Origin: Pristiophorus japonicus
Taxonomy: Eukaryota
Length of the DNA: 64,000 nucleotides
Reading direction: 5' to 3'
Assembly (NCBI RefSeq): GCF_044704955.1
Contig: NC_091987.1
Span: forward strand, 40,920,001-40,984,000
Position numbers and translations under genes: made by a program. Positions 1,865-57,143 of this stretch are shown here, in pieces. The first letter of the stretch is position 1; the number at the start of each line of letters is the position of its first letter. Under the pieces are notes generated by a model, which made no database searches, was not told the DNA's origin, and saw only the letters and a list, made by a program, of their open reading frames with translations.

Positions 1865-2745
1865 GGGACGGAGCTAAAAGGACACATTCCAAGGTTTCAG
1901 ACAAATGTGCGATGGTAACACACGAGAGAGGTAGAGCTGCATGTGCTCTGTCTGTTGGGGATGTTGCCAAAGGCCATAGATGCAGGTGAAGATGACAACG
2001 GGGTCAAGGATAGATCCTTGGGAGACTCTGGAAGTAATGGTGTGGGGAGGGAAAAGAAGCCATTGCTGGAGATGCTCTGGCAATAATTGGATCGGTAAGA
2101 GTGGACAGTCCCACTGAGCTGGATAACAGAGGAGAGGCATTGAAGGAGGAAGGTCTGGTTGGTCATAACAAAGGCTGCAGAGAGGTTGAGGAGGGTGAAG
2201 AGGGATAATGCACCACAGTCATAGTGGATATAATGTGACTTTGATGGGAGCCATGTTATGGCTTGGACGGAAACCTGATTTGAAATTCAAACAAGCTGTT
2301 GGGAGAAAGAAGGACAGAGATTTAGGAGCAACAACTTGAGAGGAAAGGGGGTTGGAGGCAGTTGTTTGCAAGGACAGATGTTGAAGGTGAGCTTTTAGAG
2401 GTGGGGAGATGGGGTTTTTGGAAGGGAAGGGGAGAATACTGAGGGAGACGGAACCATTTCTAATGTTAGCCAGTATGGGAGCCAGAAACAAAAGTTGGGT
2501 GGTCAGCAGTCGAGTGGGAATGAGTAAGCAGAGCAGGAGGTGAATCTTATCGACAAGGTTAGCTTGAAGAGGGAATGAGGGAAGATAGGAGGGAAACTAG
2601 AGGAAGACACGGGATCAAGGCTAGGGCAAAAGGGCACTTGGATGATGTTTAGCTTGGTGAGCAAGGGAAATGAGGGGGGGGGGGGGAGGGTGGTGGTGAT
2701 GTATAGCAGAGGCAGCTGAACAGAATTGCTCAACCTTAGCAACAA
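1865..2745 (-). mobile_element. Old L2 LINE fragment
   Basis: Decayed minus-strand L2 motifs such as FLAPILANI, SGFRPSHN and RVSQGSILDP. Confidence 0.75.
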
Positions 2746-2988
2746 ATGGCAAAAGGGAAATTAGCATATTGTATATATTCACATTCACATACAGGATAAA
2801 CATTTTTTTCTTGTTTGTGGCTGAACATGGAGAGGGGGTCATATCCTCCCTTAGGATCTTTCTTGTTTGGTCTTCTTCCTAACTAACAGAGTGATTGCTC
2901 CAGTCTATGCAGTGTTAGTGGAGCTCAGTTCAGGCACCAATATTGGAGAGCACAGGTTCAGGCTTCATTGTTATATTTTGTTTTTAAA

Positions 2989-4930
2989 TCAACAACTTAA
3001 AGTGCCTTGAACATAGTGAAATGTCCCAAGGCGCTTCACAGGAGTAGGAGTTAAAAAATTTGACACCAAGCTGCATAATGAGAAATTAGGGCAGGTGACC
3101 AAAAGCTTGGTCAAAGAGGGAGGTTTTAAGGAGCATCTTAAGAACATACATAGGAGCAGGAGTAGGCCATCTGGCCCCTCGAGCATGCTCTGCCATTTAA
3201 TAAGATCATGGCTGATCCGATCATGGACTCAGCTCCACTTCCCTGCCCACTCCCCATAACCCTTTATTCCCTTATTGCTCAAAAATCTGTCCATCTCTGC
3301 CTTAAATATATTCAATTACCCTGTCTCCACAACTCTCTGGGGCAGAGAATTCCATAGATTTACAACCATCTAAGAGAAGAAATTCCTCTTCATCTCAGTT
3401 TTAAATGGGCGGCCCCTTATTCTGAGACTATGTCCCCTAGTTTTAGTTCCCTCTATCAGTGGAAATATCCTCGCTGCAGCCACCTTATCGAGCCCCCTCA
3501 TTATCTTATATGTTTCGATAAGATCACCTCTCATTCTTCTGAATTCCAATGAGTATAGGCCCAACTTACTCAACCGTTCCTCATAAATCAACCCCCTCAT
3601 CCCCGGGATCAACCTTCTCTGAACTGCCTCCAAAGCAACCTTTCATAAATATGGAAACCACAACTGCACGCAGTATTCTAGGTATGGCCTCACCAATACC
3701 CTGTACAGCTGTAACAAGACTTCACTGCTTTTATACTCCATCCCCTTTGCAATAAAGGCCAAGATTCCACTGGCCTTCCTGATTATTTGCTGTACCTACA
3801 TACTAACTTTTTGTGTTTCATACACAAGGACCCCCAGGTCTCTCTGGACTGCAGCACTTTGCAATTTTTCTTTATTTAAATTATAATTTGTTTTTCTATT
3901 GAATGAGGAAAGGGAGGTAGAGAACCGGAGAGGATTAGGAAGGGAGTTCCAGAGCTTGGGGCCGAGGCAACAGAAGTCCCAGCCACCAAGAGTTGAGCGA
4001 TTATAACCAGGGATCCTGAAGAGGACAGAATTCGAGGAGCGCAGACATCTCGGGAGGTTGTGGGGCTAGGGGAGATTACAGAGATAGGGAGTGGTGAAAC
4101 CATGGAAAACAAGTATGAGAATTTTGAAATCGAGGTATTGCTTAACCGGGAGCCAATGTAGGTCAGTGTGCACAGGGGTGATGGGTGAGCGGGACTTGGT
4201 GAGAGTTGGGACATGGGCAGCTGAGTTTTGGATGATCTCTCGTTTACGTAGGGTAGAATGTGGGAGGCCAGCCAGGAGCACGTTGGAATAGTCAACTCCA
4301 GAGATAAGAGAGGTATGGATGAGGGCTTCAGCAGCAGATGAGCTGAAGCAAGGGCGGAGACGGGTGATGTTACGGAGGTGGAAATAGGGGGTCTTAGTTA
4401 TGCTGTGGGTATGTGGTCAAAAGCTCATTTCAGGGTCAAATAGGACACCAAGGTTGCGAACAGTCTGGCTCAGCCTCAGACAGATGGTTTGTGGCAGGGA
4501 CCAAAAACAATGGCTTCGGTCTTCCCAATATTCAATTGGAGAAAATTTCTGCTCATCCAAAATTGGATGTCGGACAAGCAGTCTGACAATTTAAGAGACC
4601 GAAGAGGGATTGAGAGAAGGGGTCATGAGATAGACCAGGTGTCATCAGCGTTCATGTGGAAACTGATGCGGTGTTTTCGGATGATGTCGCCAATGGGCAA
4701 CATGTAGGTGAGAAATATGAGGGGCCAATGATAGATCCTTGGGGGACACCAGAGGTAAAAATGCAGGGGCAGAAAGAAAAGCTGTTACAGGTGATTCTTT
4801 GGCTATGATTAGATAGATAAGAATGGAACCAGGCGAGTGCAGTCCCACCCAGCTAGACGACAGTGGAGAGGCATTGCAGAAGGATAAAGTGGTGAACCGT
4901 GTCAAAGGCTGCAGACAAGTCAAGAAGGAC
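2989..4930 (-). mobile_element. L2 LINE 3' part, interrupted by a CR1 at 3141-3900
   Basis: L2 3' terminus (minus strand TGTGAAGCGCCTTGGGACATTT...GTTGTTG) at 2989-3140. L2 resumes at about 3901 with LLAGLPHSTL...SPITPVHTDLHWLPVKQ and RT motifs up to about 4930. Confidence 0.85.
3141..3900 (-). mobile_element. 5'-truncated CR1 LINE nested in L2
   Basis: ORF2 C-terminus YEERLSKLGLYSLEFRRMRGDLIETYKI, with CR1 3' UTR and tail at about 3141-3230. Confidence 0.9.
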
Positions 4931-5180
4931 GCTAGATATTATCTGTGAAATCAGCATCACTAATCAGGCCTCATGTTATTTATGAACAAGAGTGTGCCAT
5001 TTGTTGCCCAGTACCTAGGCTAAATATAATGAGACCCAGAGGTTAAATGGAAAGCCCCTTGTCACTGTACTTTGATTTAGTAAATATATCATGTGCTGTC
5101 ACATAATCTTCTGAGGAAGGCAGTTGAATATACACTTCTGTGGCTCACATGACATGCTATAAACCAGCCAACTTTACTCA

Positions 5181-5312
5181 ACCATTCTGATGAAGGATTA
5201 TCGAAATAAACGTTAACTCTTTCACTCCACAGATGCTGCCTAACCCACTGAGATTTCCAGCATTTTCAGTTTTAATTTCAGATTCCAGCATCTGCAGTAT
5301 TTTGATTTTGTA
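5181..5312 (+). mobile_element. Penelope-like element terminal-repeat remnant with degenerate hammerhead core
   Basis: TTCTGATGAAGG...AAACGTTAACTCT...CCACAGATGCTGCC...TTTCCAGCATTTTC matches my recollection of the abundant chondrichthyan Penelope terminal repeat. CTGATGA at 5187-5193. Confidence 0.6.
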
Positions 5313-6768
5313 TTACTAAACTGTAAAAAGGTAAATAAATAGTACTCAGTACAAACAGCCTGTAATAATTACAAACTTTACAATTTTTCTCTACAGAACA
5401 AAAACATTTCTCTCGTGTTAGCCCTCAACAAAAATTGATGCTTTAAACATGATTGCTACTTACAGGGCTAAATATTATCATTGAGCAATCTCTGATTATC
5501 TTTATACCCCATCAGCCTGAGACTTATTATTGCAACTTCTTATTGCATATAGCCACAATATAACTCCAGATTAAAGAGAGACAACCCAGCAAAAAAAGTT
5601 TCTCATAACTAAACTGAGTTTTAAAACAAAATTTTGCATACACAGGATTCAGAATCATATCTGCTCCACCCAAATATAGCTGCCAAATAAACATGTACTT
5701 AAACAGCCCCACAGGATATAATTGAATCCTTCCTGAGAAAGTCAATGATCTGTTCCAACCACTGAACAATGTGTAATTTTAGGAAATGAATACTTGCCCA
5801 GACAGCTATCAGGCACACAGAAGGACAGAACAAACTTTGAATGCACATGTAGCCCAACAAAGAAGAATCCAATATGGTCATAAATCCTTATTTTTTGTTG
5901 CACCCTCTATAGTCAAATGCCTGACATTATCACTGCCAAGATTTACACTTCAATGGCTACTTAGTTAGGTAACACAGCAGAGGGCTGCTGGAATCCACGG
6001 TACCATGTCCAGTAAACTCTATCTTTCAAGAGAGGAGAAAATAAAAATGGCATTAAAGCATTTAAAATGAAAATTCAACAAATAGGGACCAAAATTACAA
6101 TTTAAAATTTTCATATTGATGGGAACTAGATCCTAGTGAACCCTGTTTCATTGCTCACTTTTCTCTCAATTACTGTCATTTATTACAATCATTCATCTGG
6201 CACCAGTCTAAGACAGATCACTTGCAATGCAATAATGTATTTTTCTGCTAAGAATTACAGGAAAATTCACTAATATATGTTGTACAACATCATTCTTATT
6301 TAATTAATGCAATGCACACAGATGAATGAATTTACACATGGCAAAAATCACCAATCTTAATTTTGAGATGAAGGACATTTATAGATGACAGCTAACAGTG
6401 GGAGTGGTTATATACAGTTGCAAGAAACATTGGTTGTACAGAGAAATATTAAAAATGACATAGCAAAGAGTGTTACAGATAAAATAACAGATATATGAAA
6501 TTACATTACATCTATATCATGACAAAACAAATGTACTGCAAGAAAGAGTTGCCATAGCTCAAATGACATGGTCTTATTCTACCTAGTTCTTATATTTAAA
6601 GACTTGCACAAAAGTTGGGCAACAGGAGAATGGCTGGTCAACTATCACAGGAAAAGCCTTTAATTCCATGCACGCAAATTGTAGAATTAACTCGGAGGCA
6701 AGCTGTTGAAGTACTGGTCCTCAAAAGGTTTGGTAGGGAAATGGATTATTTTGATTCTATTATATTGA

Positions 6769-8050
6769 TCATAAGAACATAAGAAATAGGAGCAGAAGTC
6801 CATAAGGCCCCTTGAGCCTGCTCCGCCATTCAATATCATGGCTGAAGCTCCACTTCCCGGCCTGCTCCCCATAACCCCTTATTATTTAAATAAATTTAAG
6901 ACAGAAATAGACAGTTTCTTAATGTCCCAGCTTCCACAGTTCTCTGAGGCAGCAAATTCCACAGATTCACAAACCTCATGGAAGAAATTTCTCCTCAGCT
7001 CAGTTTTAAATGGGCAGCCCCTTATTCTAAGATCGTACCCTCTAGTTCTAGTCTCCCCCACCAGTGGAAACATCCTCTCTGCATCCACCTTGTCAAGCCC
7101 CCCTCACAATCTTATACGTTTCGATAAGATCACCTCTCATTCCTCTGAATTCCAATGAGTAGAGGCCCAACCTACTCAACCTTTCCTCATAAGTCAACCC
7201 CCTCAACCCCAGGATCAACCTAGTGAACCTTCTCTGACCTGCCTCCACAGCAAGTATATCCTTTCGTAAATATGGAAACCGCAACTGCACGCAGTATTCC
7301 AGGTGTGGCTCACCCATACCCTGTACAGCTGTAACAAGAATTCACTGCTTATATATTCCATCCCCTTTGCAATAAAGGCCAAGATTCCATTGACCTTCCT
7401 GATCACTTGCTGTACCTGCATACTATCCTTTTGCATTTCATGCACAAGTACCCCCAGGTCCCACTGTACTTCAGCACTTTGCAATCTTTCTCCATTTAAA
7501 TAATAACTTGCTCTTTGATTTTTTTCTGCCCAAGTGCATGACCTCACACTTTCCAACATTATACTCCATCTGCCAAATTTTTGCCCACTCACTTAGCTTG
7601 TTTATGTCCTCTTGCAGATTTTGTGTGTCCTCCTCACACATTGCTTTTCCTCCCATCTTTGTATCATCAGCAAACTTGGTTACGTTACACTCAGTCCCCT
7701 CTTCCAAGTTGTTAATATAGATTGTAAATAGTTGGGGTCCCAGCACTGATCTCTGCGGCACCCCACTTGTTACGGATTGCCAACCAGAGAATGAACCATT
7801 TATCCTGACTCTCTGTTTTCTGCTTGTCAGCCAATCTTCTATCCATGCCAAAATATTATCCCCAACCCCGTGAACTTTTATCTTGTGCAGTAACCTTCTG
7901 TGGCACCTTGTCAAATGCCTTCTGGAAGTCCAAATACACCACATTCACTGGTTCCTCTTTATCCACCCTGTTCGTTACATCCTCAAAAGAATTCCAGCAA
8001 ATGTCAAACATGACTTCTTCATAAATCCATGCTGACTTTGCCCGACCAAA
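6769..8050 (-). mobile_element. 5'-truncated CR1 LINE (RT to 3' tail)
   Basis: ORF 7471-7944 has [19 protein letters not shown] and KFADDTK. The (TTCTTATG)n-type tail reads CATAAGAACATAAGAA on the plus strand at about 6770. Confidence 0.92.
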
Positions 8051-9829
8051 TAATCTTATGAAGATTGCACATTATATTATTGCATCCATAAACACTGCTT
8101 GTGTAAAATTGCTTAATAGTCAATATAATGAAAACATAATATCCACATGTATAAATGCACTAGGGCAATAATATTTAATGTGCTCCCTTCAGAACAAGTT
8201 AAATCAAGTAATCTTCAGGGTGAACCCACTGAGTAGCAATCACCATAGCAACAACCCAGATGCAGCAAATTGCCCACATATTTGACAAGGAAGCACAGAG
8301 CAGTCATGCTGAAGGATTCGCAGAGGCTTGGGTTGCTTAGGAGACAGCAGATGCAGTACATAGGTCTGAACTGCTAAATGCTCTTCCCAAGTTATTGCAC
8401 GATACAGAACTTGGTCTGCATTATTACGGCCACTATTGTGATTGCTATTGGTCTGTTTTCTAATCAATGTCACACTGAAGTGCAGAAAAAAAAAATTAAT
8501 CATGCCCCTTGTACTGACATCAGTTTGGAACAAAGTGCTTATTCAACATGGTCCATGTGTCGTCTTTTGAACAGAGGGCATTATATGTGAAACCCTCCCT
8601 GATGATTTTTTTGCAAGTTTTTTTCCAAATAAATTCATGCTAGGATTGACCACTTATTGGATTTTGAACCCTAAATAATACATAGCAGAAATTGAGACCA
8701 TAGACACGGCAAAACCATCTCAGGATTGTTCCTATTGCTGCTATGGAACATTGAGGATCCAAATTTGCAGAATTGGTTAATCCTGCCTCCAATTTATTTG
8801 GAAATATTTGCAGAAAACCAGAGAAGGTTTCACACATCTGTACACTCAGACAGATCAGTGATGCTCATGGAGAATATAATTGTAAATTTTTAAGATTGTG
8901 CACTCCCAGCTCTCCCACCATGGGGAGCATATTAGAATTATTTTGTATTAAGTAATGGAAAATCTTGGGCTGTATGAGTACATTATAATATTTCTCAATA
9001 TGTGCTCAAAGCAGATGAGGTTCTGTGACAGAAGTGCACACATGGAAAATTTACCCTGCGGTCCCTAGCAGTTACATGTGATGCAGTGATGTCGAAGACC
9101 GTTCTGTGGCATCATGTAACCTTGCAAGTGGCTGCAGGTGCTGCCGTGAAAACCAGTGAGCTCACCAACGGACACTCATGGCAGTGAAATAGATACACCA
9201 GTTAGTCACAGATGCAGATAGTGTGCCTTCTGTATCACAATTTACTTTCCAGTTGGTTCAGCACTCACCATTGCCACTCGCTCAACTACAGAAGTGCTTA
9301 GGAGTAGGGCATAGATACTTAGATAGAAATACATGAATCACAGGGGGTAAACACGTTGAAGTTGTACATCACATGCATTCAAGCACCACTGTCAGGGTTT
9401 TCCACTTGTCAACTGGCCAGCCCATAATTTCACCCCCCCCGCCCCCCCAGTCAGGCAAATCACTGACTAGTAAGCACATATGCCAGCTCAAGTTTGGAAA
9501 GACGTGAAAGCAAGCAGTAAATAAAATTATTTCACTTCTAATATATATTGAAATCAATCAATTTTTTAAAAAAATTTTTTATAAAGTGCCCAGAAAAGGA
9601 AGTATTACTTTTGAAGTGAACTAAACATATCCAGTTCTTAGAACAAAGCAGGTAAAGCATTTAACAGTTCCATTGTTGTAGATATGTAAATAAGGATCCA
9701 TTGCAGAATGCACAAACAGCGAGACCAATAAGACTACCCAGAGCCGGTCTCTCTGCCTGCCTTGGCTCATCTGCTGTGGACTATTATCCTCCTGGCCTTC
9801 CATAGCTTGCTGCTGTTGATGATTTGAAT

Positions 9830-17478: not shown

Positions 17479-20223
17479 CTCCTATTCCAACATACAGTAT
17501 GTGCTAGATCACTTTTACTGTATTAAGTTTCAATGCTGGGGATGTTGGCCTGGACGAGGACGCTAATGTTTATGCATCCGTCCTCCCAGAGGATCTGCAG
17601 GATCTTGGACACATCGCTGGTGGTATTTCTCCAGCGACTTGGTGTCTACTGTACTTGGTCCACGTCTCTGAGCAAAAGACAGAAAGGAGATGAGTAAAAG
17701 TGGAGGCCAGAGAAACCCAAGGCAAAAAACAAAAAGGGTCACTGTACAGCAAAATTCGAAAGGGTCAAAGTGTAATAAAAAGGCAAGCATGAAAGCTCGG
17801 TGCCTCAATGCGAGGAGTATTCGGAACCCAGGAAAGGGCACTGAGCTAGTTAGAATGGGTGAGAGCTCAGATGAACAGGACCGCAAGAAAGAATGCAAAA
17901 GGCCGGAGGCAACAGAGCAGAGTAGCACTGGGGTAAGTGTAAACCACAAGGTGATAGGAAGGGACAATATGTATGAATATAAAGGGGCTGCAGGAGGGGT
18001 CAAAACTAAAAATCATGGTTTAAAAACTAGTATTAAAACACTCTACCTAAACGCACACAGCATTCGAAATAAAGTAATAGAGTTGACGGCACAAATCATT
18101 ACAAATGGGTATGATTTGGTGGCCATTACAGAAACATGGTTGCAGGGTGGCCAAGACTGGGAATTAAACATACAGGGGTATCTGACAATTTGGAAAGATA
18201 GACAAGAAGGGAAAGGAGGTGGGGTAGCTCTGTTAATAAAGGATGATATCAGGGCAGTTGTGAGAGACAATATTGGCTCTAATGAACAAAATGTTGAATC
18301 ATTGTGGGTGGAGATTAGAGATGGTAAGGGGAAATAGTCACTGGTGGGCGTAGTTTATAGGCCCCCAAATAATAATTTCACGGTGGGGCGGGCAATAATC
18401 AAGGGAATAATGGGGGCATGTGAAAAAGGAACGGCAGTAATCATGGGGGATTTTAACCTACATATCTATTGGTCAAATCAAATTGCACGGGGTAGCCTGG
18501 AGGAGGAATTCATAGAATGCATACGGGATTGTTTCTTGGAACAGTATGTTACAGAACCGACAAGGGAGCAAGCTATCTTAGATCTGGTCCTGTGTAATGA
18601 GACAGAAATAATAAACGATCTCCTAGTAAAAGATCCTCTAGGAATGAGTGATCACAGTATGGTTGAATTTGTAATACAGATTGAGGGTGAGGAAGTAGTG
18701 CGTCAAACGAGTGTATTATGCTTAAACAAAGGGGACTAGAGTGGGATGAGGGCAGAGTTGGCTAAAGTAGACTGGAAACACAGACTAAACGGTGGCACAA
18801 TTGAGGAACAGTGGAGGACTTTTAAGGAGCTCTTCCATAGTGCTCAACAAAAATATATTCCAGTGAAAAAGAAGGGTGGTAAGAGAAGGGATAACCAGCC
18901 GTGGATAATCAAGGAAATAAAGGAGTGTATCAAAACCGATGCGTATAAGGTGGCCAAGGTTAGTGGGAAACTAGAAGATTGGGAAAATTTTAAACGACAG
19001 CAAAGAATGACTAAGAAAGCAATAAAGAAAGGAAAGATAGATTACGAAAGTAAACTTGCGCAAAACATAAAAACAGATAGTAAAAGCTTTTACCGATATA
19101 TAAAACGGAAAAGTGACTAAAGTAAATGTTGGTCCCTTAGAAGATGAGAAGGGGGATTTAATAATGGGAAATGTGGAAATGGCTGAGACCTTAAACAATT
19201 ATTTTGCTTCGGTCTTCATAGTGGAAGATACAAAAACCATGCCAAAAACTGCTGGTCACGGGAATGTGGGGAGGACCTTGAGATAATCACTATCACTAGG
19301 GGGTAGTGCTGGACAGGCTAATGGGACTCAAGGTAGACAAGTCCCCTGGTCCTGATGCATCCCAGGGTATTAAAAGAGATGGCGGAAGTTATAGCAGATG
19401 CATCCGTTATAATCTACCAAAATTCTCTGGAATCTGGGGAGGTACCAGCAGATTGGAAAGCAGCTAATGTAACGCCGCTGTTTAAAAAAGGGGGCAGACA
19501 AAAGGCAGGTAACTATAGGCCGGTTAGTTTAATATCTGTAGTGGGGAAATTGCTTGAAGCTATCATTAAGGAAGAAATAGCGGGACATCTAGATAGGAAT
19601 AGTGCAATCAAGCAGACGCAACATGGATTCATGAAGGGGAAATCATGTTTAACTAACTTACTGGAATTCTTTGAGGATATAACGAGCATGGTGGATAGAG
19701 GTGTACCGATGGATGTGGTGTATTTAGATTTCCAAAAGGCATTCGATAAGGTGCCACACAAAAGGTTACTGCAGAAGATAAAAGGTACGCGGAGTCAGAG
19801 GAAATGTATTAGCATGGATAGAGAATTGGCTGGCTAACAGAAAGCAGAGAGTCGGGATAAATGGGTCCTTTTCAGGTTGGAAATCGGTGGTTAGTGGTGT
19901 GCCACAGGGATCGGTGCTGGGAACACAACTGTTTACAATATACATAGATGATCTGGAAGAGGGGACAGAGTGTAGTGTAACAAAATTTGCAGATGACACA
20001 AAGATTAGTGGGAAAGCGGGTTGTGTAGAGGACACAGAGAAGCTGCAAAGAGATTTAGATAGGTTAAGCGAATGGGCCAAGGTTTGGCAGATGGAATACA
20101 ATGTCGGAAAGGGTGAGGTCATCCACCTTGGGGAAAAAAAACAGTAAAAGGGAATATTATTTGAATGGGGAGAAATTACAACATGCTACGGTGCAGAGGG
20201 AGCTGGGGGTCCTTGTGCATGAA

Positions 20224-20544
20224 ACTCTTTTGAGTTAACCTGCAAAAACATAAAACATTAAAACCATGCCACCCGACCTGGGTGACACAGCAGACATTTT
20301 CAAGGCCCCTTTTTTTTTTTGGTTTTTGGTTTTTTTTTTTGGGGCGCTAAAATCAAATTTTTCCAGTGCCCCCTATAAAAGGGGAGGGGGACACTAAAAG
20401 CACCGGCAATGAAAACAAATTAAACTTTAAAACGTAAAATCAAATTAAAATTTGGTTGCCGGGCGTGATGATGCACTCCAGTCCCTCCGGTGCCCACCTC
20501 TCGCGGAAGGCCGCGAGCGTACCGGTGGACACCGCGTGCTCCAT
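20224..20544 (-). mobile_element. Tx1-like (L1 clade) LINE 3' end, copy 1
   Basis: Minus frame 20544-20440 reads MEHAVSTGTLAAFRERWAPEGLECIITPGNQILI*, resembling the Tx1 ORF2 C-terminus, followed by an A-tract-rich 3' UTR. Flanked by TCCTTGTGCATGAA at 20210-20223 and 20545-20558. Confidence 0.75.
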
Positions 20545-20558
20545 TCCTTGTGCATGAA

Positions 20559-20893
20559 ACTCTTTTAGAGTCTACCTGCGAAAACATAAACATTAAACTG
20601 TGCCACCCGACCTGGGTGACACTCCAGACATTTACAAGGCCCATTTTTTTTCCCCCCTTTTTTGTGTTTTTTTTTTTTTGTTTTTTTTTGGGCACTAAAA
20701 TCACAATTTTTCCCCAGTGCCCCCTATAAAAGGGAAGGGGACACTAAAAGCACCGGCAATTAAAACAAATTAACTTTAAAACGTAAAATCAAATTAAAAT
20801 TTGGTTGCCGGGCGTGATGATGCACTCCAGTCCCTCCGGTGCCCACCTCTCGCGGAAGGCCGCGAGCGTACCGGTGGACACCGCGTGCTCCAT
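20559..20893 (-). mobile_element. Tx1-like LINE 3' end, copy 2
   Basis: Same 34-aa C-terminal peptide (20893-20789) with a diverged 3' UTR. Flanked by TCCTTGTGCATGAA at 20545-20558 and 20894-20907. Confidence 0.75.
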
Positions 20894-23804
20894 TCCTTGT
20901 GCATGAATCCCAAAAAGTTAGTTTGCAGGTGCAGCAGGTAATCAGGAAGGCAAATGGAATGTTGGCCTTCATTGCGAGAGGGATGGAATACAAAAGCAGG
21001 GAGGTCCTGCTGAAACTATACAGGGTATTGGTGAGGCCGCACCTGGAGTACTGTGTGCATTTTTGTTCATCTTACTTAAGGAAGGATATACTAGCTTTGG
21101 AGGGGGTACAGAGATGATTCACTAGGCTGATTCCGGAGATGAGGGGGTTACCTTATGATGATAGATTGAATAGACTGGGTCTTTACTCGTTGGAGTTCAG
21201 AAGGATGAGGGGTGATCTTATTGAAACATTTAAAATAATGAAAGTGATAGATAAGATAGAGGCAGAGAGGTTGTTTCCACTGGTCGGGGAGACTAGAACT
21301 AGGGGGCACAGCTTCAAAATACGGGGGAACCAATTTAAAACCGAGTTGAGAAGGAATTTCTTCTCCCAGAGGGTTGTAAATCTGTGGAATTCTCTGCCCA
21401 AGGAAGCAGTTGAGGCTAGCTCATTGAATGTATTCAAATCGCAGATAGATAGATTTTTAACCAATAAGGGAATTAAGGGTTGCGGGGAGCGGGCGGGTAA
21501 GTGGAACTGAGTCCACGGCCAGATCAGCCATGATCTTGTTGAATGGCAGGGCAGGCTCGAGGGGCTAGATGGCCTACTCCTGTTCCAAATTCTTCTGTTA
21601 TGTTCTTATACAGGAGGGTGGGTATTACTACGGCCCTGTTGACCATGAGCTTGATGCCAGTTCTGAGGGACTGATCTTCAAACACTCTTTTCCTCAGGCG
21701 GCCGAAGGCTGCACTGGCGCACTGGAGGTGGTGTTGGATCTCATCATCAATGCCTGCTCTTGTTGATTGGAGGCTCCCGTGATAGGGGAATTGGTCCACG
21801 TTGTCCAGGGCCAAGCCGTGGATCTTGATGTTTGAGGGGCAGTGCTGTGCGGTGAGGATCGGCTGGTGTAGGACCTTTGTTTACTAATGTTTAGCGCAAG
21901 GCCTATGCTTTCATATGCCTTGGTAAATACATCAACTATGTCCTGGAGTTCAGCCTCTGTGTGCACAGGCATCGTCCGCGTACTGTAGCTTGCCGACAGA
22001 GGTTGGAGTGGTCTTGGACTTGGCCTGGAGACGGCGAAGGTTGTACAGCTTCCCACTAGTTCTGTAGTTTAGCTCCACTCCAACGGGAAGCTTAGCACTG
22101 ACCACACTTGATCAGCTCCACTGGGCAGGCCACATAGTTCGCATACCAGACAAGAGACTCCCAAAGCAAGCGCTCTACTCGGAACTCATCCATGGCAAAT
22201 GAACCAAAGGTGGGCAGAGGAAATGTTACAAGAACGCCCTCAAAGCCTCCCTGATAAAGTGCAACATTCCCACTGACACCTGGGAGTCCTTGGCCATAGA
22301 CGGTCCTAAGTGGAGGAAGTGCATGCGGGAGGGTGCTGAGCACCTCGAGTATAGTTGCCGAGAGCACGCAGAAATCAAGCGCAGGCAGCGGAAGCATGCG
22401 GCAAACCAGGCTCCCTGCCCACCCTTTCCCTCAACGACTATCTGTCCCACCTGAAACTGTAGTTCTCGTATTGGACTGTACAGCCACCTAAGAACTCATG
22501 CTAAGAGTGGAAGCAAGTCTTCCTCGATCCCGAGGGACTCCCTATGATGATGATGACTAAGTTTACAATCCATCTGATCTGATTAGTCCAGCTAATCAGA
22601 TTTGTTCTCAGAAGTCAGTTATTAGGATCTTACATTGTACAGAATGATATTTACTTTGTGTACTATTCTTCCATAAGCCACCAGTGTTTAAAAAAAACAG
22701 CCGTGTACTTGCTCTTATCAATAGACGGAGCCAGCTGCGACCATAGAAACTAATTTGCAATAAGTGTAAGTATTCTGGGGGTCAACAATAAAAACAAAAA
22801 ACAATTCTTATTGCACAACATAATAGACAAAAAGCCATACAACAAACATGTTTGACAACAGACTTTCCACCAAGGCCACTTCTGAAAAGCCAGTGCACAA
22901 ATGCACTCCACCCCTGCAACTTCAACAAATGATGCCCATTGATGACATCTGGCAGAACATGAAGAAGCCTGTGCTAAGCATTCTGCACTGCCCCTTCATG
23001 CTACTCTCCATGGTGCAACAAAAGCCACTGTACTGGGCAAAATCTCCATCATATCTTTTTATAAAGATTCATTGTGTCAAATTAATTCTGGATTTGATAG
23101 GTAGTTCAAGTCTATCACTGATGACTCAATTTCAGTGACCTACATCAATGCTCGTCAGGACTCCCATTGGAGGTCCCACTTGTTCATGGAATCAGCTGCC
23201 TCTTTGACCTCCTCTTATGCGCTATATGGCACAGTTTCACAATCATGTGATGCCAGTGTGTGCCTTAGTACTCTGATAACTTGTAAACTTGTAAATAATC
23301 CATTACAGAAAATTATTCTCCATTTGAAGGAGAATAAGTTCTTTCAAATTTGGTCTTGTTTAGAACATTATCATTGGTTCATTAGTTTTAAAAATCAGTA
23401 ATTGTATCAGACATACCATATATCGTCCTCTGGTGGGACTGTCATTTTCAAATGGCCCCCATTATACTTGCTGGCCTCCTTGGAGCATATCCCCTGGTTT
23501 TCCCCAAGTGGCTGTTTTTTTTTCCTGATTGGAGCAAAGGAGTACCAATGAAATATTTGACTAGTGTTTTTAAGGCCTCCATGAGATGGTGCAGAATCCT
23601 CAGAGTAACCAGGTCTTCTGCTCACCCAAAATTTACACATTTAATTCAGAGTATTCTGTCTTCTTAAACAGTAGAGAGGACACAAGGCAGTATCGGGTCC
23701 ATCAAATCCAAAGACAGCCATATCAGGAGGAGCAAGATTGTAAATTATTCATCTCTGCCCTAAAACTACAGTTTGCTTCTTAAAGATGGTACCTACATAC
23801 AGAT

Positions 23805-41100: not shown

Positions 41101-43220
41101 GTACTGGGACCACAACTGTTTACAATATACATAGATGACCTAGAAGAGGGGACAGAGTGTAGTGTAACAAAATTTGCAGATGACACTAAGATTAGTGGGA
41201 AAGCGGGTTGTGTAGAGAACTCCGAGAGGCTGCAAGAAGATTTGGATAGGTTAAGCGAATGAGCTAAGGTTTGGCAGATGGAATACAATGTCGGAAAGTG
41301 CGAGGTCATCCACCTTGGGGGAAAAAAACAGTAAAAGGGAATATTATTTGAATGGGGAGAAATTACAACATGCTGTGGTGCAGAGGGACCTGGGGGTCCT
41401 TGTGCATGAATCCCAAAAGGTTAGTTTGCAGGTGCAGCAGGTAATCAGGAAGGCGAATGGAATGTTGGCCTTCATTGCGAGAGGGATGGAGTACAAAAGC
41501 AGGGAGGTCTTGCTGCAACTGTATAAGGTATTGGTAAGGCCGCACCTGGAGTACTACGTGCAGTATCCTTCCGACTTGAGGAAGGATATACTAGCTTTGG
41601 AAGGGGTACAGAGACGATTCACTAGGCTGATTCCAGAAATGAGGGGGTTACCTTGTGATGATAGATTGAGTAGACTGGGTCTTTACTCGTTGGAGTTCAG
41701 AAGGATGAGGGGTGATCTTATAGAAACATTTAAAATCATGAAAGAGATAGACAAGATAGAGGCAGAGAAGTTGTTTCCACTGGTAGGGGAGTCTAGAACT
41801 AGGGGGCACAGCCTCAAAATATGGAGAAGCCAATTTAAAACCGAGTTGAGAAGGAATTTCTTCTCCCAGAGGGTTGTGAATCTGTGGAATTCTCTGCCCA
41901 AGGAAGCAGTTGAGGCTAGCTCATTGAATGTTTTCAAGTCAAAGATAGATAGATTTTTAACCAATAAGGGAATTAAGGGTTCTGGGGAGCGGGCGGGTAA
42001 GTGGAGCTGAGTCCACGATGAGATCAGCCATGATCTTATTGAATGGCGGAGCAGGCTCGAGGGGCTAGATGGCCTACTCCTGTTCCTAATTCTTATGTTC
42101 TTATGTTCTTATGGTATTGGGGGTAATGTACTGATGTGGATAGAGAACTGGCTGGCAGACAGGAAGCAGAGAGTCGGGATTAACAGGTCCTTTTCAGAAT
42201 GGCAGGCAGTGACTAGTGGAGTGCCGCAGGGCTCGGTGCTGGGACCCCAGCTCTTTACAATATATATTAATGATTTAGATGATGGAATTGAGTGTAATAT
42301 CTCCAAGTTTGCAGATGACACTAAACTGGGTGGCGGTGTGAGCTGTGAGGAGGATGCTAAGAGACTGCAGGATGATTTGGACAGGTTAGTTCAGTGGGCA
42401 AATACATGGCAGATGCAGTATAATGTGGATAAACGTGAGGTTATCCACTTTGGGGGCAAAAACACGAAGGCAGAATATTATCTGACTGGCGCAGATTAGG
42501 AAAAGGGGAGATGCAACGAGACCTGGGTGTCATGGTTCATCAGTCATTGAAAGTTGGCATGCAGGTACAGCAGGCGGTGAAGAAGGCAAATGGTATGTTG
42601 GCCTTCATAGCCAGGGGATTTGAGTATAGGAGCAGGGAAGTTTTGCTGCAGTTGTACAGTGCCTTGATGAGGCCCAACCTGGAATATTGTGTTCAGTTTT
42701 GGTCTCCTAATCTGAGGAAAGATGTTCTTGCTATTGAGGGAGTGCAGTGAAGGTTCACCAAACTGATTCCAGGGAAGGCTGGACTGACATATGAGGAGAG
42801 ACTGGATCAACGGGCTTTTATACACTGAAGTTTAGAAGGATGAGAGGGGATCTCGTAGAAACATATAAGATCTGACTGGCTAGATGCGGGAAGAATGTTC
42901 CCGATGTTGGGTAAGTCCAGAACCAGGGGACACAGTCTTAGGATAAGGGGCAGGCCATTTAGGACTGAGATGAGGAGAAACTTCTTCACTCAGAGAGTTG
43001 TGAACCTGTGGAATTCCCTGCCGCAGAGTTGTTGATGCCAGTTCATTGGATATATTCAAGAGGGAGTTAGATATGGCCCTTATGGCTCAAGGGATCAAGG
43101 GGTATGGAGAGAAAGCAGGAAAGGGATACTGAAGGAATGATCAGCCATGATCTTATTCAATGGTGGTGCAGGCTCGAAGGGCTGAATGGCCTACTCCTGC
43201 ACCTATTTTCTATGTTTCTA
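38130..43220 (+). mobile_element. CR1 (subfamily A) nested in the opposite-strand CR1, TSD TGAAAG
   Basis: APE to RT at 38130-39772, resumes at 42111 (ATGGTATTGG) and runs to the tail at 43220. TGAAAG at 38124-38129 and 43221-43226. Confidence 0.9.
39773..42110 (+). mobile_element. CR1 (subfamily B), 5'-truncated, nested in CR1-A; carries the longest intact RT stretch in the window (ORF 40291-41262)
   Basis: Highly similar to 18600-21608. The 323-aa ORF has [27 protein letters not shown] and FADD; (TTCTTATG)n tail. It has an empty TCCTTGTGCATGAA site at 41397-41410. Confidence 0.93.
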
Positions 43221-48599: not shown

Positions 48600-50420
48600 T
48601 GCCTGTTTTTCTTTCGGTGTGATTGTTGGTATCTCGCCTGGGCTGTCTGTTGAGATTGCCCTTTCCTCAGGTTGTTACCTCTGTCTGTCTACCAGCTATG
48701 GTGTGAGTTCCACATTGTAGTCTGCCTCTGGTTCTGCAGTGTTGTTGGTGAATCTACTTTTTACTTGGTCGACATGCCTCTGGCAGGTTTGGCCATTGTC
48801 CATTTGTACCACCAGTAGCCTGTTTCCTTCCTTGCCTCTTACTGTATCTGCAAGCCATTTGGGACTCCTGCCATAGTTTAGCACAAACACTTCCACCTCC
48901 CCCTCGAATTTCGGTCATGGTACTCAGTTAGCTTCCAGCGCTTTGCCTCAACAATTTCATACATGTCTCGGAGGATTGACAAGAGCCTAGTCTTTAAGGT
49001 GCGTGTCACCAATAGTTGCGCGGGGGAAACCCCAGTCAACGAATGCGGACGAGATCTATATGCCAGCAGCAGTCGCGACAGGCGGCTCTGCAGCGTGGGA
49101 CCTTGGATTTTAAGCATGCCTTGTTTAATGATTTGCACTGCTCACTCCGCCTGGCCATTGGAGGCCGGCTTGAACGGTGCCGTCTTAACGTAATTTATGC
49201 CGTGGGCAACTATAAAATCTTGGAATTTTACGCTGGTGAAGCACGGACCATTATCACTGACCAATATGTCAGGAATCCCGTGCGTTGCATACATGGTTCT
49301 AAGGCTCTCCACAGTGGTGGAGGTGGTGCTCGAGTTTAAAATGGTGCATTCGATCCACTTTGAAAATTAATCGACAACTACGAGGAATATTTTGTCCATG
49401 AATGGGCCCGCATAGTCTACGTGCACCCGTGACCACAGTTTGGTGGGCCAGGGCCAGGGGCTCAGGGGGGCCTCGCTGGGGCCATTACTGAGTTGGGCAC
49501 AAATGGTGCACCATCGGACGCAGAGCTCCAAGTCCGCGTCAATGTCAGGCCACCAAATGTGGGATCTGGCTATGGCCTTCATGAGAACGATCCCCGGGTG
49601 CTGGCGGTGGAGCTCCCGGATAAACGCCTCTCTGCCTCGCAAACACATGACTACTCGGCTGCCCCACATCAGGCAGTCTGCCTGTAGTGATAGTTCATGC
49701 ACGCGCCTATGGAAAGGTTTGATCTCCTCGGGGCAGGCATCGTGAGTCTCAGCCCAGTCACCAGTTAAAACACATCTTTTGACTAAGGATAACGTGGGGT
49801 GGCTGGTCATCCAGGCTCTGATTTGGCGAGCCATCATGGGCGAACCTGTGGACTCAAAGGCATTGATTGCCATGACCATCTCACAGTCCTGTTCGTCGGA
49901 CCCTTCCGTGGTTGCCAGGGGTAGCCTGCTAAGCGCGTCGGCACAGTTGTCTGTGCCTGGTCTGTGCCTTAAGATGCCAGCATGAGTGCCCACCGTTGAA
50001 TGCACACCGAGGCATTGGCGTTTATTGCCTTGCTCTCGGATAGCAGGGACGTGAGGGGTTTGTGGTCGGTTTCTAACGTGAACTTGGCCCCGAAAAGGTA
50101 TTCGTGCATCTTTTTGACACCGTACACGCACGCGAGCGCCTCCTTCTCCACCATACCGTACCCGCGCTCCGCCCGCGAAAGTGACCTGGAGACATAAGCA
50201 ATGGGTTGTAATTTACCCGCACCATTGACATGCTGTAAAATCCACCCGACCCTGTACGCTGATGCATCACACGTAAGAACTAGCTTTTTACCTGGGTCAA
50301 AAAAAGTCAAAACACTGTTGGAACATAGAAGGTTGCGTGCCTTATTGAAGGCGCGTTCTTCGGCGTCCTCCCAAAATCAATCGCACCCCTTTCTGAGTAG
50401 CACGTTGAGAGGCTCCAGCA
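48600..50420 (-). pseudogene. Gypsy pol remnant (RNase H, integrase zinc finger and DDE core, C-terminal domain), frameshifted
   Basis: LVLTCDASAYRVG, EKEALACVYGVK, ETDHKPL, ADALSRLP, H..HPGI...C..C, RVHVDYAGPF and RHVDQVK. Confidence 0.9.
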
Positions 50421-55785: not shown

Positions 55786-57143
55786 ATAGAAACATAGAAA
55801 ATAGGTGCAGGAGTAGGCCATTCGGTCCTTTGAGCCTGCACCACCATGTAGTGAGATCATGGCTGATCATTCACCTCCATACCCCTTGATCCCTTTAGCT
55901 GTAAGGGCCATATCTAACTCCCTCTTGAATATATCCAATGAACTGGCATCAACAACTCTGCTGTAGAGAATTCCACAGGTTAACAACTCTCTGAGTGAAG
56001 AAGTTTCTCCTCATCTCAGTCCTAAATGGCTTACCCCTTATCCTAAGACTGTGTCCCCTGGTTCTGGACTTCTCCAACATCGGGAACATTCTTCCTGCAT
56101 CTAACCTGTCCAGTCCCGTCAACATTTTATATGTTTCTCTGAGATCCCCTCTCATCCTTCTAAACTCTAGTGAATACAGGCCCAGTCAATCCAGTCTCTC
56201 CTCATTTGTCAGTCCTGCCATCCCGGGAATCAGTCTGGTGAACCTTCGTTGCACTCCCTCAATATCAAGAACATCCTTCCTCAGATTAGGAGGCCAAAAT
56301 TGAACACAATATTCCAGGTGAGGCCTCACCAAGGCCCTGTACAACTGCAGTAAGACCTCCCTGCTCCTATACTCAAATCCCCTAGCTATGAAGGCCAACA
56401 TACCATTTGCCTTCTTCACCGCCTGCTGTACCTGCATGCCAACTTTCAATGACTGATGTACCATGACACCCAGGTTTCATTGCACCTCCCCTTTTCCCAA
56501 TCAGCTGCCATTCAGATAAAATTCTGCCTTCGTGGTTTTGCCCCCAAAGTGGATAACCTTACATTTATCCACATTATACTGCATCTGCCATGCATTTTCC
56601 CACTCACATAACCTTTCCAAAACACCCCGCAGCCTCTTAGTGTCCTCCTCACAGCTCACACGCCACCCACCTTAGTGTCATCTGCAAACTTGGAGATATT
56701 ACATTCAATTCCTTCATCTAAATCATTAATGTATATTGTAAATAGCTGGGGTCCCAGCACTGAGCCCTGTGGCACCTCACTAGTCACTGCCTGCCATTCT
56801 GAAAAGGACCCATTTATCCCAACTCTCTGTTTCCTGTCTGCCAACCAGTTCTCTATCCACATCAGTACATTACCCCCAATACCATGTGCTTTAATTTTGC
56901 ACACCAATCTCTTGTGTGGGACCTTGTCAAAAGCTTTTTGAAAGTCCAAATACACCACATCCACTGGTTCTCCCTTGTCCACTCTTCTAGTTACATCCTC
57001 ACAAAATTTCAAAAGATTTATCAAGCATGATTTCCCTTTCATAAATCCATGCTGACTTGGACCGATCCTGTCATTGCTTTCCAAATGCGCTGCTATTTCA
57101 TCTTTAATAATTGATTCCAACATTTTCCCCACTACTGATGTCA
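55786..57143 (-). mobile_element. 5'-truncated CR1 (subfamily A)
   Basis: ORF 56656-57153 has [13 protein letters not shown] and FADDTK; tail CATAGAAACATAGAAA at 55786. Confidence 0.92.

Follow-up and report, generated by a model that had tools for sequence, protein, structure and literature searches.

Xenopus Tx1 inserts into another transposon (Tx1D, a piggyBac), and the crocodilian Tx1-Mar, Tx1-8_Crp/Tx1-4_AMi, Tx1-9_AMi and SINEU show a preference for Mariner, LTR retrotransposons or Harbinger (PMC4494074). Target duplications between tandem copies, as well as small-RNA pieces at 5' ends, are on record for the crocodilian Tx1 families; the part of that account drawn upon here describes neither CR1 or another LINE as a target nor common truncation points, and its supplements may list more targets (PMC4494074). 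In the rDNA of Drosophila, R1 arrays have a 14-bp duplication, form when a further element enters the duplication that borders a resident's 5' end, and go with transcripts carrying downstream target bases (PMC2718515, PMC5932611). As to R2, pairing of the cDNA with target DNA over as little as 11 bp sets the so-called 'anneal' 5' junctions (PMC11371274, PMC11331408). In the relevant sections of two sources, the joining of the 5' end of non-LTR retrotransposons figures as an open question (PMC11331408, PMC6895275).

A literature search, with Repbase entries outside the comparison, retrieved no report of a CR1-targeting Tx1 or of tandem neighbours truncated at the same base (co-truncated). Gilbert et al., in 2002 and 2005, reportedly observed new L1 cDNA joining a homologous genomic L1, giving chimeras with deletions or duplications, and such chimeric insertions are said to be rare and to come from cell culture. 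In the shark family described here, joining to a resident would instead be what mostly happens where the target has been regenerated.

The window analysed is the whole stretch of 64,000 nucleotides from the shark Pristiophorus japonicus (NC_091987.1, 40,920,001 to 40,984,000). In it TCCTTGTGCATGAA occurs exactly at positions 20210, 20545 and 20894, plus a single copy at 41397, and seven matches are found when up to two mismatches are allowed, against 0.87 expected. The first three copies flank and separate two units of 321 and 335 bp, antisense to their CR1 host (Table 1), which begin on one shared base and are identical over their first 119 nt, beyond which 25 substitution or indel events separate them. 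A sister CR1 aligns to both flanks of the array at 92-94% and has the 14-mer once, inside its DLGVLVHE codons, so that three exact copies against one confirm a 14-bp target duplication. The repeats, the two units and the empty site had been noticed correctly in a first-pass annotation, made from the sequence without database searches; it also saw the common start of the units and left it without explanation, and this is the most unusual part.

Table 1. Features of the CR1 host, the array and the related CR1 copies in the window
Feature	Positions	Strand	Basis
5' part of host CR1 (ORF2 endonuclease/RT region, short broken frames)	17672..20209	+	ORFs 17672-18337 and 19337-19837; 93-96% to sister CR1; 5' boundary approximate
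Target-site duplication copy, array 3' end in element sense	20210..20223	+	exact 14-mer match
Downstream unit, element positions 6849-7183, likely older resident	20224..20544	-	alignment; private substitutions; polarity inferred from other arrays
Last 34 codons and stop of Tx1 ORF2, downstream unit	20440..20544	-	
Internal target-site duplication copy	20545..20558	+	exact 14-mer match
Upstream unit, start also 6849, other 3' UTR variant, likely newer copy	20559..20893	-	alignment
Last 34 codons and stop of Tx1 ORF2, upstream unit	20789..20893	-	
Target-site duplication copy, array 5' end in element sense; regenerated target	20894..20907	+	exact 14-mer match
Host CR1, 3' part (ORF2 end and 3' tail)	20908..21603	+	92% to sister 41397-42100
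Empty target in sister CR1, targeted group	41397..41410	+	14-mer match and alignment
Homologous position in a CR1 belonging to the second group, which is hardly ever hit	42538..42551	+	

The host ORF2 has its best matches in bird and turtle RT proteins (~50%) and in unnamed proteins (70-75%); the bird LINEs of this type are presumably CR1. By these best matches the host is assigned to the CR1 clade, its APE-RT ORF2 appearing nearest to vertebrate CR1. The insertion site, earlier placed in the RT thumb, does fall within the RT region of CR1 ORF2; by codon count it lies ~70 codons past FADD, just ahead of the thumb, at RT motif 7. The insert was also thought to disable the host ORF2, but the frame of the window copy was already broken upstream of it. 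One private substitution is found in the downstream unit and none in the upstream one; with the polarity inferred from other arrays, the former is likely the older resident and the latter the newer copy. Contigs of four runs cover both the element and CR1 and include the joint of an empty site; being multi-copy, they are uninformative on the window locus itself.

Each window unit is the 3' end of an autonomous LINE of the Tx1 clade, truncated on its 5' side. Full-length copies, which lie at the same CR1 site as the annotation had anticipated, measure 7,183 bp and encode an ORF1 of 699 aa and an ORF2 of 1299 aa, both frames being open in 24 of 34 complete copies, a sample biased toward young copies. 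ORF2 contains Exo_endo_phos (6-227), RVT_1 (512-761) and zf-RVT (1137-1180, under the Pfam cut-off) and the zf-CCHC match of ORF1 is weak; the layout is that of the Tx1 clade, with two ORFs and an ORF2 bearing an N-terminal AP-like endonuclease, RT and a C-terminal zinc knuckle, the motifs being present. ORF2 is 49% identical to Xenopus laevis Tx1 (Tx1L) across 1,297 residues, which bears out the proposed Tx1 identity. In a quick tree of 33 rows that left out the named Keno, Kibi and Koshi, it stands inside the L1 group in a three-row clade with YTX2 (Xenopus Tx1), its nearest named relative there, and a turtle protein (SH-aLRT 98); its best relative of solved structure is human L1 ORF2p. Sequence-specific insertion with target-site duplication likewise agrees with the Tx1 clade. 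Membership in the R1 clade was considered and discarded, ORF2 being of Tx1/L1 type and the target CR1 instead of rDNA; the likeness to R1 concerns array formation only.

The family comprises at least 10,419 copies, and in 7,242 of the 10,419 the CR1 target 12-mer stands, without mismatch, directly after the 3' end, the element lying antisense to CR1 ORF2 between 14-bp target duplications. Among the first 30 3' ends in order of position, 14 abut CR1 at the site, 12 abut the target and a next unit, as expected of re-insertion into a regenerated target, and four are off-target. This is almost certainly a Tx1-clade LINE that inserts into CR1 ORF2 at a single fixed position. Unlike Xenopus Tx1, it has a coding position of another LINE as its target, is present in at least 10^4 copies, and forms long arrays. 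The target, which had been supposed to be conserved across CR1, is ~22% filled in one CR1 group, whereas only five filled sites are found among about 42,000 in the sister group; the predicted endonuclease would discriminate between the two groups ~2,000-fold.

Two other origins had been suggested, namely a non-autonomous derivative of ~330 bp with a fixed 5' end, and a single insertion spread by hitchhiking in CR1 transcripts. The junction of the window array is indeed found again at a second locus, and three copies close to the beginning of C1 have common flanks. Nevertheless, this junction is confined to five copies at two loci with differing host flanks, and 55 locus-specific 5' starts are spread over element positions 2538 to 7124, so that the fixed 5' end common to dispersed copies that defines a SINE-like unit is lacking; the supposed peptide is the last 34 residues of ORF2, its ATG coding for a Met well inside the frame (residue 1266 of 1299), no start. 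Filled (51) and empty (19) hosts mingle in the tree (16 changes against 16.9 when shuffled, AU p=0.029), and the filled hosts, forming no clade, diverge by 4.8%, compared with 1.5% among the inserts. The flanks of the C1 trio are non-CR1 and point to segmental duplication. None of the three outcomes that the annotation had named as refuting its reading came about: flanks are not random, the peptide belongs to Tx1 ORF2, and the hosts are of independent origin. Both suggestions are refuted, with next to no chance left to them.

Across the family, a shared truncation base is the usual outcome for tandem neighbours, with exceptions. Within 61 consecutive filled sites, co-truncation was found in 9 of 11 tandem pairs and 7 of 9 arrays, while loci share a truncation base by chance in 10 of 1,478 comparisons (0.7%); rows 1-6 of the list were excluded because they look like segmental duplications (three with common flanks), and L109 as a junction-spanning local repeat. 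Junction oddities, such as extra bases and shortened or mutated duplications, are passed on between neighbours (L083, L086, L091, L099, L135, L150), and in hybrids the switch is visible, near-identity extending over ~2,480 of 3,090 nt in L098 and ~3,700 of 4,650 in L189; older long pairs do not allow the switch to be located. Co-truncation is absent from 30 of 74 listed adjacent pairs, many of which are block-repeat junctions and at least three mis-split rows; 19 of the 30 have the longer unit upstream.

In all five block repeats the inner units are alike, with 0-1 substitutions in the UTR, and the final unit stands apart with 7-19; a 12-unit array on C7 fits the block-copy scheme cleanly in blocks 2 and 3 only. 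Arrays tend to extend at their 5' side: of 37 arrays, 27 show fewer private substitutions in the unit at the 5' end and 8 show more (p=0.002), not all of these arrays being read to both ends (several were not), and a per-pair age test gave 16 against 11 (p=0.44), without significance.

The common start of the window units is probably explained by priming of the newer copy at the 5' duplication, followed by its completion on the resident. The predicted endonuclease would nick the bottom strand between GGGA and TTCA, where an RNA ending in a hairpin and a few read-through target bases would prime reverse transcription. With a resident just downstream, the cDNA would pair with the resident's top strand, a short cDNA being lengthened on the resident until it reaches the nick and a long one trimmed to the resident's 5' junction; pairing with a unit farther downstream would copy the entire intervening block. 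Each event would yield a chimera with the 5' junction of the resident and the 3' end of the incoming RNA. In R2 the homology is that of the upstream target within the RNA and no duplication arises, whereas here it would be that of the downstream resident, with a duplication as the result; in R1, the cited sections treat distinct truncations in dimers as a sign of double insertion, not as an inherited truncation point (PMC11371274, PMC11331408; PMC2718515, PMC5932611). Some 3' ends resemble the upstream target in inverted form over 9-10 bases; this was dismissed, 3% of control windows reaching the same.

A new copy might instead insert with its own 5' end and then, while heterozygous, gain the resident's 5' junction from the homologous chromosome, family and target being unchanged. 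The end structure equals that expected from inter-allele recombination, block repeats included, which speaks against a one-step model; also in favour of recombination, co-truncation beside long residents is above chance (25 of 42 listed pairs) and is not universal. Such recombination is improbable all the same, for most tandems would need a crossover or conversion that falls inside a stretch of a few hundred bases: among the 32 listed pairs whose resident measures up to 500 nt, 19 are co-truncated despite a UTR divergence of ~6%. Very young pairs without ORF differences (L087, L099, L031) are co-truncated already; switches are unevenly spread, falling in 4 of 11 matching full-length neighbours within 230 nt of 7.2-kb homology; and unequal exchange after fixation would recycle the array's existing 3' UTR, which three-unit arrays do not.

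The old local duplication that had been proposed for the tandem fares worse. In its plain form it is rejected, since a duplicate 3' UTR (two substitutions or fewer) occurs in none of 41 co-truncated pairs, the median difference being 14 substitutions within pairs and 13 between loci, and since of two copies of a local duplication on C14 one has a single unit and the other that same unit, unaltered, plus a new co-truncated unit upstream. If a unit was duplicated between the 14-bp repeats and its 3' end then overwritten by incoming cDNA or gene conversion, the smallest UTR difference (three substitutions, L086) would fit, and copies of the L116 type, a short 3' end attached to a deleted resident, indicate that events at the 3' duplication happen too. 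Yet the 41 pairs hold no unconverted duplicate while the inner units of block repeats remain unconverted, and this variant is strongly disfavoured.

Completion on the resident being the preferred reading, it is tentatively proposed, at somewhat less than even chances, that a LINE parasitic on the RT gene of another LINE completes its insertion, as a rule, by pairing of its cDNA with a resident, and that target-primed reverse transcription may thereby build arrays of more than 30 kb and keep producing chimeric full-length elements; with about one fifth of one CR1 group occupied and the sister group, whose site is changed, escaping, this would amount to a conflict of LINE against LINE. The list of Tx1 targets gains a LINE coding sequence, and retrotransposition would have a route to large tandem arrays as well as to active recombinant copies. 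In thousands of natural products a neighbour apparently served as the template for the 5' junction, and their switch points can be read; they make the question of 5' joining testable by genomics and a simple assay.

The element does belong to the Tx1 clade. In the 5.9-Gb genome that holds the window, 40 of 598 candidate matches were scored and read for 30 loci (L-numbers below denote loci); outside the window, element sequence at loci read among these matches extends upstream of the unit start. Five fetched regions contain 7.2-kb units arranged head to tail with the 14-mer between each, one array occupying 33.5 kb inside a single CR1, and a full-length Tx1 with ORF1 and ORF2, which the first-pass annotation had named as support for its reading, exists at the site. 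In a full copy (see table) the 3' UTR lacks poly(A), and the peptide noted earlier is the C-terminal end of ORF2. The latter contains APE, RT and (weakly) zinc knuckle domains, shares 49% identity with its Xenopus Tx1 counterpart and groups with it in the tree. Among named ORF2 pieces the nearest, at 69-70%, belong to a ray and a bullhead shark, which makes a cartilaginous fish the likely source of the window. Of 34 complete copies, a sample biased to young ones, 24 have both reading frames intact. Near-identical element pieces occur in sequencing runs X7, X12 and X13, labelled organisms B, C and D; relatedness, mislabelling or carry-over are possible.

Positions of the features discussed
Feature	Position	Detail
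Full copy	L037:392-7574	927-nt leader, ORF1 699 aa, ORF2 1299 aa, 230-nt 3' UTR
Element-end-only sites	near 9660-9682 (element sense)	L101, L122, L123, L125, L133, L137, L139, L143, L158
5S rRNA/tRNA fusions	L121:9549-9668, L112:9575-9646, L074:1346-1418	
Internal jump	L116:9600-9700 (element sense)	element position 5126 to last dozen bases
Off-target site, two units	L182 (G000:C1:33646601-33656600)	own duplication between units
Second CR1 group	window 42538-42551 and 56423-56486; L181	changed sequence at homologous site
LTR-like frames	window 49367-50212 (-); L035:1491-3927	
Pieces in X7, X12, X13	L130:6700-10000	

The closest proteins of the host place it in CR1; elsewhere, frames resembling gag/pol pieces of LTR retroelements were seen by eye. 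An internal 3' UTR 20-mer has at least 10,419 occurrences genome-wide, and tabulating the flanks bore out insertion at one site inside CR1, the exact target 12-mer directly following 7,242 of them. By position, the first 30 3' ends join CR1 at the site in 14 cases (three being one segmental duplication), the target and another unit in 12, and off-target sequence in 4; the target is absent at 8 of 100 listed ends. TTCA opens eight of the ten non-target sites read, and a separate 12-15-bp duplication accompanies most of the ten, so these are true insertions with a relaxed site. One such site holds two units.

Exact pattern counts in the targeted CR1 group give 6,844 filled versus 24,353 empty sites, about 22% filled, a rough value in that the two search patterns differ in length. 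The second CR1 group, also abundant, is almost never hit (5 filled versus 42,053 empty at the homologous position); it may have escaped or may never have been a target. Of 60 filled sites taken consecutively, 50 yielded the upstream part of CR1; insert length varies from some 10 nt up to the complete element. Hitchhiking in CR1 transcripts, raised earlier as an alternative, is disfavoured: hosts with and without an insert do not separate on the tree, and host sequences at filled sites diverge by 4.8% versus 1.5% for their inserts, so the insertions were independent.

The three 14-mers, two antisense units and empty sister site of the window are as first described, and the units are identical over their first 119 nt, with 25 differing events thereafter. 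The fixed 5' end proposed for them did not hold, their junction occurring just five times, at two loci, and a short derivative as source of the shared start is disfavoured accordingly. A shared start is the rule between neighbouring units: across rows 7-67 of the filled-site list, the start of a truncated downstream unit is shared by its upstream neighbour in 9 of 11 adjacent pairs (7 of 9 arrays), and in all fetched DNA 44 of 74 listed adjacent pairs, which are not independent, are co-truncated, i.e. start at the same element position. Between loci, sharing amounts to 10 of 1,478; for the shortest copies it is 7 of 104. Junction quirks are likewise inherited. The 3' UTRs of 41 co-truncated pairs are 3-26 substitutions apart, the level of unrelated copies; a clean switch from resident (older, downstream) to new sequence is visible in some pairs (L098, L189), and subfamily-diagnostic differences begin within 23-163 nt of the junction in L083, L146, L150 and L135. 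Full-length neighbours behave alike, with at least 111 nt of identity in 11 of 16 pairs (5 arrays); 0.16% of 2,436 between-locus full-length pairs are identical at 120 nt.

The younger unit is 5'-most in 27 of 37 arrays versus 8 showing the opposite, a narrower age test of unit order not being significant. In a local duplication on C14 one copy has one unit and the other two, the added unit lying upstream. Five block repeats (L087, L031 blocks 2-3, L006, L029, L194) have matching inner units, the sole new part being the last 3' end. From these array structures we infer that a nick would be made at the 5' duplication, thereby keeping the CR1 upstream context, and that priming would be by an RNA whose terminal hairpin takes in the first target bases; the 30 most frequent of the 46 end variants are all predicted to form such a hairpin. 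The cDNA would then pair with the top strand of the resident, short cDNAs being extended along it and long ones trimmed, and a distant unit as partner would lead to copying of a block. In the main rival, a copy inserts in the ordinary way and then, still in the heterozygous state, recombines with the homologue; this predicts the same final structure, yet is a poor fit to short, young and divergent pairs; duplication plus conversion is also disfavoured as source of co-truncated pairs. The 9-10 bases common to some 3'-end variants and the reverse complement of the upstream target (window 20908-20937) also occur in 3% of control windows. The jump within L116 suggests that its 3' end was replaced, with a deletion, by an event at the downstream duplication.

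According to passages of the papers cited, known Tx1-family targets include DNA transposons, LTR elements, small-RNA genes and microsatellites (PMC4494074), R1 arrays grow at the 5' duplication (PMC2718515), and R2 junctions are set by homology (PMC11371274, PMC11331408). A literature search, with Repbase, subscription papers and the figure and supplements of PMC4494074 outside its scope, found neither a CR1-aimed Tx1 nor inherited truncation points. CR1 is apparently a new target for the clade, and the junction behaviour, which is family-wide, apparently undescribed.

By regex, 9 of the 60 filled sites carry no more of the element than its final 8-13 nt (by eye, 11 sites do), and these pieces end in the predicted terminal hairpin; they likely reflect abortive reverse transcription. 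A tRNA-like piece was seen by eye at L108, with no Rfam call. Copies of 5S rRNA or tRNA fused without a gap to the 5' side of a short 3' end of the element, at the CR1 site in two of three cases, are chimeric retro-copies and possible raw material for SINEs.
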